The translations under genes were made by a program, and so were the position numbers. A stretch of 8,797 nucleotides of DNA, from contig CAYIHC010000036.1 of assembly GCA_964363105.1 (NCBI GenBank), positions 1-8,797 on the forward strand. Direction: 5' to 3'. Positions 1,405 through 7,957 of the stretch are shown here, piece by piece. Every line of letters begins with the position of its first letter. Position 1 is the first letter of the stretch. Below the pieces are notes generated by a model. It made no database searches and had not been told where the DNA came from. It worked only from the letters and a program-made list of their open reading frames with translations. This stretch comes from Candidatus Woesearchaeota archaeon (GTDB lineage: Archaea > Nanobdellota > Nanobdellia > SCGC-AAA011-G17 > JACQNH01).

Positions 1405-2907
1405 ATGCAAAAAGAGAATAATCTATATACTGAGGTATTAGAGTTAGCATCTAGAAAAAGCATATTTTATCCTTCAAATGAGATTTACAATGCTCCTGCC
1501 GGGTTTTGGAGTTTTGGGCCTATAGGGGAAAGCATAAGAAGGAGAGTGATTGATTTCTGGAGGAAGGAATTTGTTCAAGAAAATGAGATGCTTGAGATAG
1601 ATGGAAGCATTACAATGCCTGAAGAAGTTTTTAAGGCATCTGGACATTTAAGCTCTTTTGTTGATCCTGAAGTTGTATGCAAGAATTGTAAATCAAGATT
1701 TAGGGCTGATAAATTGTTAAGCGAGAAATTAAACAAGATAGTTCCTGAATCTTTAAGTGTAGATGAATTTAATGCAATGATGAAGAAAAATAATATTAAA
1801 TGTTCTTCTTGCAAGGGTGATTTAAGCGATGTTAAAAAGAGCTCTTTAATGGTGCAGAGCAATATACGTGGTGAAAAAAACTTCTATTTAAGACCTGAAG
1901 CGTGTCAATCAATATTTTTAGAGTTTTTGAGAATGACTAAAACAATGAGAGTTACCTTACCTAAAGGAATTGCACAGATTGGAAAAGCATTTAGAAATGA
2001 AATTTCTCCAAGACAATCAATTTTAAGATCTATAGAATTTTCCCAGATGGAAGCTGAGATATTTTTTAATCCTGAAAAAATAAATGATATAGAAGATTTT
2101 AAATTAATTGAGAATTATAAATTAAGAATATTAAGAGTTGATAAAAAAGAGATAGAAGAAATAAACTGTAAGGATTTAGTTCAGAAAAAAATTATCTCTG
2201 GGGAACTACCTTGTTATTTTTTAGCTAAAGAGCAACAATTTTATGAAAAACTTGGGATACCTAAAGATAAAATGAGATTCAGGGAACTAAACAAAGATGA
2301 CAGGGCTTTTTATTCGAAAGAAAGCTTTGACTTTGAGGTTTTAACTTCTGTTGGATGGCTGGAGTTAAGTGCTAATAACAATAGGCAAGATCACGATCTA
2401 AAGGGGCATTCGGATGGAAGTAAGCAGGACTTAAGTTTTAGTGATGATGGGAAGAAATTTATTCCTCACATATTTGAGGTTTCTATCGGTGTGGATAGAA
2501 GCTTGTATGCTATTTTAGAATTAAGCTTTATCAAGGAAAAAGAAAGAAATGTTTTAAAATTAAATCCAAGATTAAGCCCTTATGATTGTGCTGTATTTCC
2601 TTTGGTGAATAAGGACGGAATGGATTTAGAGGCTAAGAAACTTGTTAAAATACTAAGAGACAATTTGTATGAGGTTTTTTATGATGATAGTGGAAGTGTA
2701 GGAAGAAGATACAGAAGAATGGATGAGGTAGGTGTTAAGGTTTGTGTTACTGTTGATGGTGAAACTTTAAAAGATAAAACAGTTACTCTTAGAGATAGAG
2801 ATTCAATGAAACAAGTAAGAATTAAAATTGATGAGTTAAGCTGCGTATTGAATCAGATGATTTGTTTTGATAAAGAATTAAAAGAATTTGGAAAGGTGAT
2901 TAATTGA
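1405..2907 (+). CDS. glyS: Glycyl-tRNA synthetase, archaeal/eukaryotic alpha2 type (class II)
   Basis: N-terminal SIFYPSNEIYNAPAGFWSFGPIGE, class II motif 2 region YLRPEACQSIFLEF...GKAFRNEISPR, motif 3 region SIGVDRSLYAILE, and an anticodon-binding domain (LSPYDCAVFPLV...YDDSGSVGRRYRRMDEVGV). A CxxC...CxxC insertion (CKNCKSRFRADKL...CSSCKG) is present. At 500 aa it is compact. Confidence 0.95.
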   Translation: MQKENNLYTEVLELASRKSIFYPSNEIYNAPAGFWSFGPIGESIRRRVIDFWRKEFVQENEMLEIDGSITMPEEVFKASGHLSSFVDPEVVCKNCKSRFRADKLLSEKLNKIVPESLSVDEFNAMMKKNNIKCSSCKGDLSDVKKSSLMVQSNIRGEKNFYLRPEACQSIFLEFLRMTKTMRVTLPKGIAQIGKAFRNEISPRQSILRSIEFSQMEAEIFFNPEKINDIEDFKLIENYKLRILRVDKKEIEEINCKDLVQKKIISGELPCYFLAKEQQFYEKLGIPKDKMRFRELNKDDRAFYSKESFDFEVLTSVGWLELSANNNRQDHDLKGHSDGSKQDLSFSDDGKKFIPHIFEVSIGVDRSLYAILELSFIKEKERNVLKLNPRLSPYDCAVFPLVNKDGMDLEAKKLVKILRDNLYEVFYDDSGSVGRRYRRMDEVGVKVCVTVDGETLKDKTVTLRDRDSMKQVRIKIDELSCVLNQMICFDKELKEFGKVIN

Positions 2908-4016
2908 CTGTAAACTGGAAATTGATTTTAGGTATCTTGTTTTTGGTTATTATTTTAATATTTATTCTTACCTTTAAATCCAATAAAGAGGTTGTGAAAA
3001 TCGGTGCGGTTTTACCATTAACTGGGAAAGGGGCCCCTTACGGAGAAGAGTGGGGGAATGCAATTTTAATGGCTGTTGAGGATCTTAATGCTGATGGGGG
3101 TGTTAATGGTAAACTCTTGGAGGTTGTTATAGATGACAGCAAAACTGAAAATGCAGTTGCTGTGACCTCTATGACTAAATTGGTAAATGTAGATAATGTT
3201 AAGATTGTTTTTAGTGGCTTAAGCGGTCCTGTTGCAGCAGTAGCACCTGTCGCTGAAGAGAATAAGGTTATATTATTTGGGGTAACTACTGCAACCAATT
3301 GGGCTTTGGAAAATGAGTATTCTTTTAAGGATTACACAGATATAGCTTTGGAATGTAAATTTTTAGGGGAGAAAGTAAAGGGTAAAAAAATTGCTTTTAT
3401 CGGTGTCAATGTTGATACAACTTTGGATTGTATAAATAGCCTGAAGAATGAGGGTGTAGACTTAGTCTATGAACTGTATACAAAGGAGGATAATGATTTT
3501 CGAAGCCAGATTACGAAGGTAAAGGATAGTGGGGCAGATTTCATAATGATAAGACCCCTTAAGGCTGAGTTTTTGATATTAATAAAACAAATGAAGGAAT
3601 TAGAATTTACTCGACCGTTGATTTGCCCGACTTTACGGCTTACTGGTTGCGATACTAAGGAGTTTATAGAAATAGGAAAAGAGTTTTTAAACGGAGGGAT
3701 AGCAAGCGGATTTTATGTAGATAGAGATAATCCAAAAGTAAGCCAATTTTTTAATAGATATAAAGAGAAATTTGGCAAGGAATTAACAGGAGATGGGATA
3801 TTCGTTTATGATGATGTTAAACTCCTAGGAAAAGTTTTAGAGATTTGTGATAAGACGGGAAATATAGCTGATACGACTTGCCTTAAAGAGGAAATAAAAG
3901 GGCATAGTTTTGATTCTATTGCTGGAAAAGAAAAGCTAAAGTTTGATGATAAAGGTGTAGCAAGTCGAGAAGTAGCCTTATTTAAATTTGAAAACGGTAG
4001 TTGGGTAATAAATTAA
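2904..4016 (+). CDS. Type-1 periplasmic-binding-fold solute-binding protein (LivK/branched-chain amino acid ABC substrate-binding-like) with an N-terminal membrane anchor
   Basis: N-terminal hydrophobic helix (LILGILFLVIILIFILTF), followed by the typical VKIGAVLPLTGKGAPYGEEWGNAILMAVEDLNADGGVNGKLLEVVIDDSKT signature of Peripla_BP_6-type proteins. The only in-frame start before the anchor is TTG at 2904, which overlaps the glyS TGA (TTGA). Confidence 0.8.
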   Translation: MTVNWKLILGILFLVIILIFILTFKSNKEVVKIGAVLPLTGKGAPYGEEWGNAILMAVEDLNADGGVNGKLLEVVIDDSKTENAVAVTSMTKLVNVDNVKIVFSGLSGPVAAVAPVAEENKVILFGVTTATNWALENEYSFKDYTDIALECKFLGEKVKGKKIAFIGVNVDTTLDCINSLKNEGVDLVYELYTKEDNDFRSQITKVKDSGADFIMIRPLKAEFLILIKQMKELEFTRPLICPTLRLTGCDTKEFIEIGKEFLNGGIASGFYVDRDNPKVSQFFNRYKEKFGKELTGDGIFVYDDVKLLGKVLEICDKTGNIADTTCLKEEIKGHSFDSIAGKEKLKFDDKGVASREVALFKFENGSWVIN

Positions 4017-4285
4017 ATTTGTATTAATTGTTTTTTTCTTATCTTGTATAAGCCTTCAATGAAATCGGTTCCTGCATAGCCTGCTAATAAGGATAATTTT
4101 AAATCTGTTGGGAAGAATAAACCTGCAAATAAGCCAATAATTCCCGATGCTATTAATGTGAATAAAATTGCTTGAAGTTTAAAACCTTTAATTTTAGGAT
4201 CTAATTTATATTTTAAGAAGCCGACACAAGCACGTGCTAAACCACCAATAAAACCGAATAAGGCTGCTTGTAAATAAGGTTCCAT
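4013..4285 (-). CDS. Small hydrophobic membrane protein (2-3 predicted helices), function unknown
   Basis: 90-aa ORF with an ATG start (cat 4283-4285). It has Gly/Ala-rich hydrophobic segments (ALFGFIGGLARACVGFL, ILFTLIASGIIGLFAGLFF). An A/T box at 4304-4315 lies about 25 nt upstream. Its stop codon overlaps the stop of the convergent gene (TTAA, 4013-4016). Confidence 0.55.
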   Translation of the reverse strand: MEPYLQAALFGFIGGLARACVGFLKYKLDPKIKGFKLQAILFTLIASGIIGLFAGLFFPTDLKLSLLAGYAGTDFIEGLYKIRKKQLIQI

Positions 4286-4303
4286 AAATTTGGTTGTTTT
4301 TGA

Positions 4304-4315
4304 ATATTAATAAAG
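4304..4315 (-). promoter_or_regulatory. TATA-like box for the minus-strand gene starting at 4285
   Basis: atattaataaag on the + strand, centred about 25 nt upstream of the minus-strand ATG. Confidence 0.35.
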
Positions 4316-4333
4316 ATTTTGATGATACAGAAG

Positions 4334-4342
4334 TTTTATAAA
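4334..4342 (+). promoter_or_regulatory. TATA box (ttttataaa) for the ORF starting at ATG 4365
   Basis: Centred about 27 nt upstream of ATG 4365. The motif is near-identical to the boxes upstream of tRNA-Ala (4863-4871) and the 6920 gene (6890-6897). Confidence 0.5.
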
Positions 4343-4364
4343 TTTCTGCTTTTTGTTTTTGTTT

Positions 4365-4862
4365 ATGTCACAAGGTAAACCGGGAAGGCTCGAGATGGAG
4401 TTTATGCAAAGGCCATTTATGACTCATAGGGTGCAAAAAGAAAACTTTTCTTTGTATAATGATGGTTATTTTAATTATGATCGTCTGGATTTTGAATTAC
4501 AACTTGCGAGGGCCGTTGCTTTTAAAGAACTAAGGGGGAAGAAGGGGTGGGTGGAAACAATGGCAATGTTTTTTCTTGATACTGCAGACAGCGATGATGG
4601 GTCATGGAAGAAATTTTTGGGTGGTAAAGGTGAGAAAAAACTAATTGAATATGGTAATAATTATAATGCTGTTGAAACTTATTTGATGAGGGTTATGGGT
4701 GGGAGAAATCCTGAAAAATTTACCAGTCTTACAATAGGGAACTTGGGAAACATAGTTTATGTTCCTTTCGGGAGACCAAGAGATTTCCCTGTTGCTGATT
4801 TTGAGCTTCTTGTTGGAAAAGTATGCGCTAGTGTTACAGGATATGCGCTTTTTATTAGATGA
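4365..4862 (+). CDS. Hypothetical soluble protein (165 aa), no family recognised
   Basis: Long open frame with coding-like composition. I prefer ATG 4365 (MSQGKPGRLEMEF...) over the track's TTG 4353, because the TATA box sits 27 nt upstream of 4365. Confidence 0.6.
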   Translation: MSQGKPGRLEMEFMQRPFMTHRVQKENFSLYNDGYFNYDRLDFELQLARAVAFKELRGKKGWVETMAMFFLDTADSDDGSWKKFLGGKGEKKLIEYGNNYNAVETYLMRVMGGRNPEKFTSLTIGNLGNIVYVPFGRPRDFPVADFELLVGKVCASVTGYALFIR

Positions 4863-4871
4863 TTTTATAAA
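4863..4871 (+). promoter_or_regulatory. TATA box (ttttataaa) for tRNA-Ala
   Basis: Centred about 28 nt upstream of tRNA position 1 (4895). It begins 1 nt after the upstream stop codon. Confidence 0.5.
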
Positions 4872-4954
4872 CACAATAACTTTTTCTTTTTTATGGGCCG
4901 GTAATTCAGTCCGGTAGAATGCTCGGCTGGCAGTCGAGATGCCTCGGGTTCAAA

Positions 4955-5043
4955 AGAGTTTTCTTTTAAGAAAAGAAACCTCGTAAAGAAAAAAGAAATT
5001 TCTTTTTCCGTGTTTTTCTTTTTGAAAGAAAAAGCTCTGAAAG
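4955..5043 (+). other. tRNA-Ala intron (89 nt), bulge-helix-bulge bounded, position 59/60
   Basis: The central 4-bp helix is ttca (4949-4952) with tgaa (5038-5041). It is flanked by the 3-nt bulges aaa (4953-4955) and agt (5042-5044). The outer helix is the T-stem. The inner helix pairs gagtttt (4956-4962) with aaagctc (5031-5037), read 5'-3'. Cutting after the second bulge nucleotide on each side gives 4954|4955 and 5043|5044. Confidence 0.8.
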
Positions 5044-5045
5044 TC
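5012..5045 (+). repeat. 34-nt stretch identical to 6778-6811 (3' end of the intron plus the first two 3'-exon nucleotides)
   Basis: gtttttctttttgaaagaaaaagctctgaaagtc occurs at both loci. The upstream 12-mer tttctttttccg (4999-5010 and 6764-6775) is also shared. So is tttcttttRAGaaaagaaa (4960-4978 and 6728-6746). Confidence 0.95.
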
Positions 5046-5062
5046 CCGACCGGTCCACAACC

Positions 5063-5070
5063 TTTTTTTT
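5063..5070 (+). terminator. T8 tract, likely archaeal transcription terminator for tRNA-Ala
   Basis: tttttttt begins 6 nt after the discriminator base. Oligo-T tracts act as archaeal termination signals. Confidence 0.5.
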
Positions 5071-5199
5071 AACAAAGAAACTCGAATGGCTTCTGTTCCA
5101 ATACACAGGAAACCTTGAGAAAAGAAAAAGCGTTGAAAAATGGGTTTGGTCATTCATAAGGCTTTTAATTCAAATTTAACTGGTAATTTTTGATGAAAT

Positions 5200-5976: not shown

Positions 5977-6339
5977 TTATTCTAATTTTCTTATTCTATA
6001 CCGACCAAGTTTAACAATTGCCAATGATTGTTCTAGATCTTTGATATTAATAGACATTAAAAACTCCATTAATACATTTGCGAATTGAAATGCGTTGAAG
6101 GAAGATGGTAGTCTTAGAATTACAATTCCACAATGTGGTTTAGTTTGTGAAGTTATAAAATATCCAAACTCTAAATCTTTTGTTACAAGAATGCTTTTAC
6201 TCCTTATTGCATATTCCAGTATCTTTTTATCAGTAGCTTGCCCTAAGCCGATATCTCTTGCATGTATAACCTCCAAGTTAATCTTTTTGAAAATATTTAA
6301 AGTAGAATAAGGTATGTTTGCATCAAGAAAGAATTTCAT
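5977..6339 (-). CDS. DUF5615 / Mut7-C PIN-like domain protein (putative toxin nuclease)
   Basis: FFLDANIP (N-terminal acidic residue), ATDKKILEYA and ILVTKDLEF match the PIN-like DUF5615 pattern. There is a 4-nt ATGA overlap with the upstream DUF433 gene. Confidence 0.75.
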   Translation of the reverse strand: MKFFLDANIPYSTLNIFKKINLEVIHARDIGLGQATDKKILEYAIRSKSILVTKDLEFGYFITSQTKPHCGIVILRLPSSFNAFQFANVLMEFLMSINIKDLEQSLAIVKLGRYRIRKLE

Positions 6340-6560
6340 CTTTTAATTTTTAATAAACCAACTTGTTCCTCAGAAACTATTTCTGTGGCATATTTTAGGG
6401 CAGATAGTATGCTGTTCTTATCGACACCATATTCCTTTTCAATTTCTTCAAAGGTCATATCACTGGCTAAAGCCCCTATAATCTCATCTACAGTTATCCT
6501 AGTTCCTTTGATTATGGGTTTACCAAATCTTACATTTTCATCGATTATTACTTCTGCCAT
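6336..6560 (-). CDS. DUF433 domain protein (putative antitoxin / HTH partner of DUF5615)
   Basis: The 74-aa ORF has RFGKPIIKGTRITVDEIIGALASDMTFEEIEKEYGVDKNSILSALKYA, the classic DUF433 pattern. It lies upstream of and overlaps the PIN-like gene. Confidence 0.8.
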   Translation of the reverse strand: MAEVIIDENVRFGKPIIKGTRITVDEIIGALASDMTFEEIEKEYGVDKNSILSALKYATEIVSEEQVGLLKIKR

Positions 6561-6627: not shown

Positions 6628-6636
6628 TTTTTTAAA
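6628..6636 (+). promoter_or_regulatory. TATA-like box (ttttttaaa) for tRNA-Met
   Basis: Centred about 29 nt upstream of tRNA position 1 (6661). Confidence 0.4.
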
Positions 6637-6721
6637 TGCTATTAATTTAAAGATTTATAAGTCTCGGTAGCTCAGCCTGGCTAGAGCACGGGTTTCATAA
6701 GCCCGGGGTCGAGAGTTCAAA

Positions 6722-6809
6722 ACAGCCTTTCTTTTGAGAAAAGAAAGCTTGGGGAAAGAAAACTTTCTTTTTCCGAGGTTTTTCTTTTTGAAAGAAAAAG
6801 CTCTGAAAG
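6722..6809 (+). other. tRNA-Met intron (88 nt), BHB-like, position 59/60; paralogue of the tRNA-Ala intron
   Basis: The central helix is ttca (6716-6719) with tgaa (6804-6807). The bulges are aaa (6720-6722) and agt (6808-6810). The inner helix is weaker than in tRNA-Ala: c6723 opposite c6803 is a mismatch, followed by pairs a6724-t6802, g6725-c6801 and c6726-g6800. Confidence 0.78.
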
Positions 6810-6811
6810 TC
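6778..6811 (+). repeat. 34-nt stretch identical to 5012-5045
   Basis: Direct comparison of the two loci; see the 5012-5045 entry. Confidence 0.95.
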
Positions 6812-6851
6812 TCTCCCGAGACACTTAAATTTACTGAGATTATTACTACGA

Positions 6852-6919: not shown

Positions 6920-7957
6920 ATGGTTGATTTTACTGCTCCAAATGCGGGAACAATACAAAGAGCTGGACCTATGAATCCTATAAAGATGATTATCAACAGC
7001 ATTGTCGGGGTTATAATTGGAGTTTTATTTATTTTGTTGTTAGCTCCTACTGTTTTGTGGTTCGCTGAAAGCCAGAATACTGCTAAGATATTTTCATTTA
7101 CAAAAGAGGTTTCTTCAACAAGCGGGGCTTCGGGTTATATACGAACTACTGAAATAGCCAACGCAAATACACCTATTGTTTGTTATGAAAACAAGATACA
7201 AGGAAATTGTCTTTATTATGATTACAAATTGGAAGAGTTAAAATATACTCTAAAAGACTATTGTGGAAACTTAGGGAAAAATCAACAGGTTATAGAAACT
7301 AAAGGGCAAAAATGCAGCAGAAATAATAAGGGCGAGGAAAAATGTAGACAGTGTTATCTTGTAAATGAGAGTAACTGGGTAAACATAAAATCTGAAACAA
7401 GATTCCAGCCTTTTTCAATTGGTAATTTTAAAGTTGATTATCCGAATAGCGCTAAGATAATTGGAGCAGAGAATTACAATAAGCAGATTGATACAATACA
7501 TAGGGAGAGCATGAGATATATTAAAGATAATAGTAATTTATTAGTTGGCGGTAATTCTAATGGACAAGTGATCAGTCATGGAGGTGATAAGAAATATCTT
7601 TTAATCTCAACAAAAGACTATCAATCAACTTATGATACACTTAAAGCACAAGATAGAATACTTGCGTGGATATTAAGAATAATTACTTTAGTTGTTTTGA
7701 TATTTGGTTATAATCTTATTTTCGGACCAATCTCATTAATGTCTAGTTTTGTTGGAAAGATACCAATTATTGGGAGATGGATTGATGGTGCTGTCGGCGG
7801 TGTTATTTTTATTGTAAGTCTTTTACTTGCTATAGTCCACTTTATTATATTGTGGATTTTGATTATGATAATAAAAAATATTTTATATATTGCAATTCTT
7901 TTAGCTGTTATTGGATTAATCTTCTATCTTTATGCATACTTTAAAAAACAAAATTAA
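6920..7957 (+). CDS. Membrane protein, TMEM43/DUF1625-like topology (N-terminal helix, large ectodomain, C-terminal helix bundle)
   Basis: 345-aa ORF. The N-terminal helix ends in APTVLWFAESQ, comparable to the LWWNEG motif of DUF1625. A roughly 200-aa hydrophilic Cys-containing domain follows. Several C-terminal helices contain GPISLMSSFVGKIPIIGRWIDGAVGG. The family assignment is tentative. Confidence 0.65.
   Translation: MVDFTAPNAGTIQRAGPMNPIKMIINSIVGVIIGVLFILLLAPTVLWFAESQNTAKIFSFTKEVSSTSGASGYIRTTEIANANTPIVCYENKIQGNCLYYDYKLEELKYTLKDYCGNLGKNQQVIETKGQKCSRNNKGEEKCRQCYLVNESNWVNIKSETRFQPFSIGNFKVDYPNSAKIIGAENYNKQIDTIHRESMRYIKDNSNLLVGGNSNGQVISHGGDKKYLLISTKDYQSTYDTLKAQDRILAWILRIITLVVLIFGYNLIFGPISLMSSFVGKIPIIGRWIDGAVGGVIFIVSLLLAIVHFIILWILIMIIKNILYIAILLAVIGLIFYLYAYFKKQN

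Follow-up and report, generated by a model that had tools for sequence, protein, structure and literature searches.

Introns between nucleotides 59 and 60 of the tRNA T-loop occupy a listed, recurrent non-canonical site in archaea (PMC4090602), and in the DPANN archaeon ARMAN-2 (Candidatus Micrarchaeum acidiphilum) they interrupt tRNA-Cys(GCA) and tRNA-Pro(GGG) (Fujishima et al. 2011, PMC3239211). Here we analyze a stretch of 8,797 nucleotides (nt), called the window throughout, from a Candidatus Woesearchaeota (DPANN) archaeon of Hainich groundwater. Positions 4895-5057 (window coordinates, plus strand unless stated) are read as a functional tRNA-Ala(GGC) gene carrying an 89-nt intron at the 59/60 site, with a probability that we place at approximately 0.9. 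A preliminary description of this DNA had held T-loop introns to be rare and catalogued mainly in Thermoproteales; since 59/60 is a listed recurrent site and is also used in ARMAN-2, it is not mainly a Thermoproteales curiosity. The same description had considered the intron unusually long, which holds in the local comparison with its homologues (49-59 nt, versus 89 nt here).

The ARMAN-2 system shares with the window a DPANN host and an intron between T-loop nucleotides 59 and 60, and its tRNA-Pro(GGG) case carries a strict splice motif of the same kind. A 59/60 intron of ARMAN-2 was cleaved in vitro by the organism's own splicing endonuclease, EndA (PMC3239211). The two systems differ in that the tRNA-Cys intron tested in vitro measures 13 nt, against 89 nt here, the ARMAN-2 EndA is a three-unit epsilon2 enzyme of 387 residues while relatives of the window encode a single-unit enzyme of 195 residues, and both the host tRNAs and the intron sequences are different.

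Thermoproteales carry very similar introns across isoacceptor tRNAs, at canonical and non-canonical sites, a pattern that Sugahara (2008) and Fujishima (2010), as far as they are summarized in PMC4090602, read as intron gain by large-scale transposition. As in that summary, non-canonical positions are many in the present case, 59/60 among them, and similar introns are found in different isoacceptor tRNAs. Thermoproteales, however, are hyperthermophilic Crenarchaeota with an (alpha-beta)2 EndA that has a Crenarchaea-specific loop, and the intron family of the window differs from theirs in being A/U-rich and hairpin-like, in occurring also in tRNA trailers, and in including chimeras that point to recombination between paralogues. 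The mechanism by which archaeal tRNA introns are gained is still unknown (PMC4090602).

Canonical introns, at position 37/38, have the same bulge-helix-bulge (BHB) motif and the same cut rule as the tRNA-Ala intron of the window. The two sites are alike in geometry, 59/60 lying between the sixth and seventh nucleotides of a 7-nt loop on a 5-bp stem exactly as 37/38 does in the anticodon loop; unlike 37/38 introns, the present one is hosted by the T-arm, and its 3' tetramer must pair with the invariant UUCA. The euryarchaeal tRNA-Trp intron is long, is removed at a BHB motif in the canonical position and carries a C/D-box guide RNA, whereas the tRNA-Ala intron of the window sits at a non-canonical position and is devoid of C/D boxes.

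DPANN genomes, including one from Woesearchaeota, have been surveyed for disrupted tRNA genes by Kaneta et al., who suspected that they harbor unidentified ones (PMC5829648); the window locus is a concrete example. tRNAscan-SE 2.0 reports 673 non-canonical introns in 217 archaeal genomes, using BHB models trained on Crenarchaeota, Euryarchaeota and Thaumarchaeota (PMC8450103). In a full-text literature search on Woesearchaeota and tRNA introns, no paper described the intron family of the window. Introns of this type and at this position have been published before, as has the idea of intron transposition, and our results extend known biology to a new lineage and overturn nothing; the local interest lies in a family of paralogous introns that occupies loop sites of equivalent structure.

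The tRNA-Ala(GGC) gene and its intron

Excision of 4955-5043, a segment of 27% G+C, fuses 4895-4954 with 5044-5057 into a 74-nt tRNA-Ala(GGC). The first exon (4895-4954, tRNA positions 1-59) comprises the 5' strand of the acceptor stem, the D-arm, the anticodon arm, the variable loop, the 5' strand of the T-stem and T-loop nucleotides 54-59. The second exon (5044-5057, positions 60-73) contributes T60, the 3' strands of the T-stem and of the acceptor stem, and the discriminator A73 at 5057; CCA is not encoded in the gene. The acceptor stem (GGGCCGG/CCGGTCC) carries the G3:U70 pair, and the anticodon loop, CUGGCAG, presents GGC at 4929-4931. The preliminary description had proposed this complete plus-strand tRNA by reading the sequence, and ARAGORN agrees, calling a 74-nt tRNA-Ala(ggc), a cloverleaf with the correct identity elements, once 4955-5043 is removed. 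The ARAGORN check that had been suggested for the locus works on the spliced sequence only, as the unspliced DNA yields no call.

The splice junctions display a strict 3-4-3 hBHBh' motif (outer helix h, central helix H, inner helix h') built on the T-stem. The outer helix is the T-stem itself, in which 4944-4948 (TCGGG, positions 49-53) pairs with 5045-5049 (CCCGA, positions 61-65), while the central 4-bp helix joins the T-loop UUCA (4949-4952, positions 54-57) to UGAA (5038-5041), and the inner helix pairs 4956-4962 with 5031-5037 through 7 bp including one G.U. The central helix is flanked by 3-nt bulges, AAA on the 5' side (4953-4955) and AGU on the 3' side (5042-5044). In archaea, EndA cleaves after the second nucleotide of each bulge, which predicts cuts at 4954/4955 and 5043/5044 and leaves the T-loop TTCAAAT. 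The preliminary description had outlined this motif, and each of its statements on the sequence held; the junction itself is supported by several intronless Woesearchaeota tRNA-Ala(GGC) genes, which have exactly GGGTTCAAATCCCGA at the predicted position. The intron folds either as one long imperfect A/U-rich hairpin or as three short hairpins.

Standard detectors do not see the gene. On the intact window, ARAGORN found no tRNA and Rfam gave no match at the gathering threshold; at a relaxed threshold, the Rfam tRNA model matched only 4895-4952 of the tRNA-Ala gene, with 22.6 bits. The intron mode of ARAGORN missed both split genes that the window turned out to contain, and misassigned the anticodons of other disrupted genes, such as a tRNA-Pro(UGG) called Ser(tga) in the relative L019 (L-numbers are labels for relatives' loci). 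Owing to these failures we employed a BHB-guided scan, in which all excisions of 10-200 nt with a 4-bp central helix and two outer pairs were generated and the products submitted to ARAGORN (34,917 candidates for both strands of the window and of the relative L012; 316,638 for all loci). Within tRNA bodies, junction-spanning tRNAs arose only from excisions at genuine tRNA loci, and the window gave exactly two qualifying excisions, that of tRNA-Ala and a second one at 6721/6810. Matches with junctions at tRNA positions 5-8 or 65-72 were rejected as artefacts at the acceptor ends of intact tRNAs, and an 84-nt 'intron' in the tRNA-Met of L030 was discarded as one of these. As ARAGORN and Rfam are blind to both window tRNAs, standard annotation will show Woesearchaeota without tRNA-Ala(GGC) and a tRNA-Met, and spurious open reading frames (ORFs) get called across such introns, as in the window.

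A self-splicing intron was rejected, since Rfam matched no group I or group II family at gathering or relaxed thresholds, there was no ribozyme-core match, and 89 nt is too short for either core. The relaxed Rfam matches on the intron (miRNA precursors, hveRNA, a Leptospira sRNA) lie far below their gathering scores and mirror a generic A/U-rich hairpin.

Intron turnover and a paralogous intron family

Woesearchaeota tRNA-Ala(GGC) genes were recovered by scanning GTDB genomes and JGI metagenomes for a 5'-exon signature, and syntenic loci were collected through homologues of the glycyl-tRNA synthetase (GlyRS) of the window. Intronless orthologues score 57-63 bits against the Rfam tRNA model (cut-off 29), and those of L010 and L011 are identical to the predicted spliced product at 70 of 74 positions. 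The tRNA-Ala genes of L006 and L017 have the same exons and differ solely by an 18-nt insert at 59/60. In L012, which is syntenic and whose GlyRS is 92% identical to that of the window (amino acids), the two exons together show one difference, in the D-loop, while the intron, 53 nt long and likewise at 59/60, has diverged, indels included, and identity in the flanks is approximately 73%. Because the exons are nearly unchanged while the intron and flanks diverge, the tRNA-Ala appears to be spliced rather than decaying.

The tRNA-Ala intron differs from one relative to the next. With GlyRS identity to the window given in brackets, the syntenic gene has a homologous 59-nt intron at 59/60 in L022 (82-83%), an unrelated 16-nt intron at 37/38 in L019 (83%), two introns, at 23/24 and about 44/45, in L024 (79%), and a 13-nt intron at 37/38 in L028 (60%), and it is intronless in L029 (58-59%) and L030 (57%). 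Among five closely related genomes with a common gene order, the same tRNA-Ala shows five different intron arrangements. In the tRNA-Ala(GGC) gene of L024 (12943-13051; the same gene occurs in L025, L026 and L027), the inserts measure around 16 nt at 23/24 and 20 nt near 44/45, there is no 59/60 intron, and ARAGORN miscalls the gene Pro(ggg).

The second split gene, at 6661-6823, is a tRNA-Met(CAU). The preliminary description was correct on the tRNA-Ala and had missed both this gene and the paralogy of the two introns. Its first exon (6661-6721), found by a partial Rfam match and by the BHB-splice scan, belongs to an elongator-type tRNA(CAU) that ARAGORN assigns to Met; an 88-nt intron follows at 59/60 (6722-6809), and the second exon occupies 6810-6823. 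This gene is also unseen by ARAGORN and by Rfam at the gathering threshold, with a partial match at 6668-6731 (26.3 bits) under relaxed conditions. The spliced product is identical to the intronless L022 orthologue at 74 of 75 positions. In the tRNA-Met intron, a C x C mismatch adjoins the 5' bulge at the start of the inner helix, so that the BHB is of the relaxed type. A putative TATA-like element, TTTTAAAT, lies at 6630-6637, some 27 nt upstream of the gene, and TTTTAAA is kept upstream of the tRNA-Met orthologues in L012, L019 and L022.

Besides the window, only L012 has the tRNA-Met intron, with a length of 49 nt at the same site; the orthologues of L019, L022, L024, L029 and L030 are intronless, and in L028 the gene was not recovered. 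This distribution is consistent with a gain after speciation, polarized by a single-protein tree that does not separate L019 and L022, and the simplest explanation is that the intron was acquired by an ancestor common to the window and L012. Compared with the L012 orthologues, each of the two window introns is longer by about 36-40 nt.

The tRNA-Ala and tRNA-Met introns of the window are paralogous: over the last 46 nt they share 95.7% identity, and the overall alignment has a z-score of 37. The first 41 nt of the tRNA-Met intron match the 37/38 intron of the L019 tRNA-Pro(UGG) at 36 of 39 positions (z = 17), and the L024 tRNA-Pro intron matches as well. The 5' half of the tRNA-Met intron resembles tRNA-Pro introns while that of the tRNA-Ala intron resembles the tRNA-Ala introns of L012 and L022. 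Across tRNA-Ala, tRNA-Met and tRNA-Pro hosts, all pairs but one reached z-scores of 4-37 versus shuffles (the exception being the tRNA-Ala and tRNA-Pro introns of L022, at 0.9), and similar introns are hence shared by tRNAs of different isoacceptor identity, as in a transposed family. Two unrelated introns with z-scores near 0 fall outside the family, one of 18 nt at 59/60 in L006 and one of 16 nt at 37/38 in the L019 tRNA-Ala.

Family members are found at 37/38 of tRNA-Pro(UGG) in L019, L022 and L024. In the L019 tRNA-Pro, UAAG is the 3' tetramer of the intron and forms pairs with the CUUG in the anticodon loop, while T-loop hosts have UGAA, which pairs with UUCA; since the tetramer fits each host loop, the helix-forming end is adapted to each host. 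The tRNA-Pro(UGG) introns measure 46-52 nt, and the genes are located between those for L11 and L37ae (L019, 257-377; L024, 4863-4988; L022, about 6290-6415). ARAGORN in intron mode calls these genes Ser(tga) or Thr(tgt), and that of L022 seems to be further interrupted in its 5' part.

Copies of the family also lie outside tRNA bodies. In the window, an intron-like remnant, TTGAGAAAAGAAAAAGCGTTGAAA, is found in the 3' trailer of the tRNA-Ala (5115-5138), and its local alignments to both introns were equaled by at most 1 in 500 shuffles. A fuller copy in L012 (4795-4830, z about 12) directly follows A73 of the tRNA-Ala, while the L022 tRNA-Ala trailer has no family copy. L030 holds two (14651-14690 and 14108-14145), one just past its intronless tRNA-Met (nhmmer E-value 4.6e-5) and one in an intergenic region (4.3e-4). 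Some trailer copies begin 2-3 nt past A73. The copies outside tRNA bodies have T-runs on both strands and might serve as terminator hairpins as well, or they may be the mark of a small mobile element. The window trailer copy was also considered as a decayed duplicate of the intron plus exon 2; its intron-like part is supported, and the exon-2-like part is too weak.

Most likely, these introns were copied recently from one loop site to another of equivalent structure, and the copies then recombined. Since both window introns are longer than their orthologues, have near-identical 3' halves and have 5' halves that resemble different introns, recombination between the tRNA-Ala and tRNA-Met copies in the window lineage is suggested. 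The occurrence of copies in trailers and at an intergenic site raises the possibility that the family is a small hairpin element copied around tRNA genes. Tentatively, and at somewhat less than even odds, we propose a small A/U-rich hairpin element, recently active in this Woesearchaeota lineage and copied as DNA into and next to tRNA genes, of which the intron would be one form. Copies within tRNAs would survive only where their end can pair with a 7-nt loop as a BHB (37/38 and 59/60), others would persist as trailer or intergenic hairpins, and recombination between copies would generate chimeras and shared length changes. If this is true, the locus provides a natural system for the birth of archaeal tRNA introns in a DPANN archaeon with a single-unit EndA, including before-and-after gene pairs with identical exons. 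The locus is in any case a compact record of intron turnover, in which recent gain and recombination would be visible locally.

Non-canonical introns appear to be common in this group of Woesearchaeota. Other tRNA genes are interrupted by introns at 53/54 and in the variable region (L004, about 7300-7322; L014, about 1640-1760; L007, L016 and L009), the 53/54 inserts having the form TCGGG|AAA...CGAGAA|TTCAAAT, and in the L014 tRNA-Ala inserts flank the anticodon loop on both sides. The 5'-exon pattern also matched archaeal-type tRNA-Lys(UUU) genes in L005, L015 and L018, one of which lies on a contig that was placed, probably by mistake, in the bin of a Thermodesulfobacteriota bacterium.

Predicted splicing and competing explanations

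A TATA-box-like element, TTTATAAA, is located at 4864-4871, its center some 27 nt upstream of the tRNA-Ala 5' end, and the orthologous genes in L012, L019, L022 and L024 are preceded by TTATAAA at about the same distance. The element is a putative promoter of the tRNA-Ala, and a run of eight T at 5063-5070, 6 nt past A73, is a likely archaeal transcription terminator. Transcription would start from the former and stop at the latter. In the precursor, T-loop nucleotides 54-57 would pair with the last UGAA of the intron, placing the 3-4-3 BHB on the T-stem, a geometry that can be read in the sequence. EndA would then cut after the second nucleotide of each bulge, an RtcB-type ligase would join the exons and restore the T-loop UUCAAAU, and a CCA-adding enzyme would complete the 3' end.

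A 195-residue EndA (PF02778 and PF01974) is encoded 2.4-3.8 kb downstream of the HIT protein gene in L019 (15835-16422, minus strand), L022 and L024, which have the gene order of the window. Among solved structures, it best matches the catalytic subunit from N. equitans (3IEY_A, 4.5e-38) and the homotetrameric M. jannaschii enzyme (1A79, 2.4e-30); smaller EndA genes, of 170 and 177 residues, are present in L029 and L030. The strict 3-4-3 motif is accepted even by alpha4 and alpha2 EndAs (PMC3239211), and the tRNA-Ala motif is thus a predicted substrate for any archaeal EndA type. The reading of the locus as a tRNA-Ala(GGC) gene with a 59/60 intron cut by EndA is supported by the spliced ARAGORN call, by the intronless orthologues, by the homologous introns of L012 and L022, and by this EndA gene of the relatives.

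Several points weigh against the gene being functional and spliced as proposed. Unconstrained folding leaves the 4-bp central helix open; the fold with the BHB imposed lies only 2.9 kcal/mol above the minimum free energy, which counts in favor of the motif. The introns of L012 and L022 and the tRNA-Met intron of the window display relaxed motifs only, with a mismatch next to the 5' bulge or with 5-nt bulges, and are not expected substrates of a classical alpha4 enzyme. EndA was seen only in relatives, the 8.8-kb window ending before its expected position; our view is that of the window, and a further intact tRNA-Ala(GGC) elsewhere in the genome would lie outside it. Transcription, cleavage and ligation of the tRNA-Ala in vivo are what we infer from the gene, and a single-protein neighbor-joining tree and parsimony are the basis for the proposed direction and mechanism of intron copying. 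The relaxed motifs argue for an enzyme of broader specificity; alpha4 EndAs with an L3 loop, found in multiple DPANN lineages, accompany more disrupted tRNA genes (PMC5829648), and by analogy the relaxed introns fit this report.

The intron could carry a functional RNA of its own, such as a C/D-box guide or a stable circular RNA, with its length under selection. It is 30-40 nt longer than its orthologues and shares a near-identical 3' half with the other long copy, and its fold is more stable than those of shuffled sequences (z = -2.6 for the intron alone, -4.65 for the pre-tRNA). No combination of C box (RUGAUGA), D box (CUGA) and guide is present in the tRNA-Ala intron, however: a C box was absent even when one mismatch was allowed, and the sole CUGA belongs to the BHB helix. 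Rfam gave no credible match, as all but the partial tRNA matches fall far below their gathering scores, and length and sequence vary freely in close relatives (49-89 nt), which argues against a conserved cargo. We consider this explanation very unlikely.

A pseudogene is hardly a better candidate, and we regard it as highly improbable. In this case a hairpin repeat would have been inserted in the T-loop and inactivated the tRNA-Ala, which would remain unspliced, the BHB-like pairing being incidental. The trailer copies of L012 and the window and the trailer and intergenic copies of L030 do behave as a repeat element, the insert is of low complexity and A/T-rich, and splicing is predicted here from DNA. 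An inactivating insertion, however, does not account for exons that stay almost unchanged between the window and L012 while all around them diverges, nor for the fact that three species and two genes all have the insert precisely at 59/60, in every case with UUCA/UGAA pairing and with 3-nt bulges so placed that excision restores UUCAAAU. The promoter element and the T-run are kept, and no tRNA-Ala(GGC) other than the one in the syntenic slot was seen in the locus of any relative.

A minus-strand protein-coding locus with a coincidental tRNA-like fold can practically be dismissed: the two overlapping minus-strand ORFs pointed out in the preliminary description do exist (4950-5153 and 4966-5157, 67 and 63 residues), but neither has a Pfam match, their translations are of low complexity, relative to L012 the region has indels of 36 and 31 nt, the latter no multiple of three, and the tRNA gene explains the plus strand completely.

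Host and genomic surroundings

The window has approximately 30% G+C and encodes a diphthamide-synthesis protein, GlyRS, a HIT protein, a DUF5615/DUF433 pair, Alba and S17e. The diphthamide-synthesis protein, Alba and S17e mark an archaeal host, as expected for a BHB intron, and the GlyRS homologues and tRNA matches are labelled Candidatus Woesearchaeota; from these two lines of evidence the host is a DPANN archaeon. An identical GlyRS is present on contigs of the 0.1-um fraction of Hainich groundwater. Exact-protein look-ups of the two ORFs flanking the tRNA gave no match, probably due to differing start codons.

Compared to its syntenic relatives, the window has three extra segments, which look like insertions adjoining tRNA genes. 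The first (2904-4016) holds a periplasmic-binding-protein gene after GlyRS, the second (5977-6560) is the DUF5615/DUF433 pair between the HIT protein gene and tRNA-Met, likely a PIN-like toxin-antitoxin system, and the third (6920-7957) carries a gene for a 345-residue membrane protein between tRNA-Met and Alba. Among the relatives, free-standing genes with a LAGLIDADG domain are found in L019 (370-1152, minus strand), immediately adjoining the intron-containing tRNA-Pro, and in L030 (7727-8575, plus strand), and L029 contains an intein within an FtsZ/tubulin gene (2849-5080).

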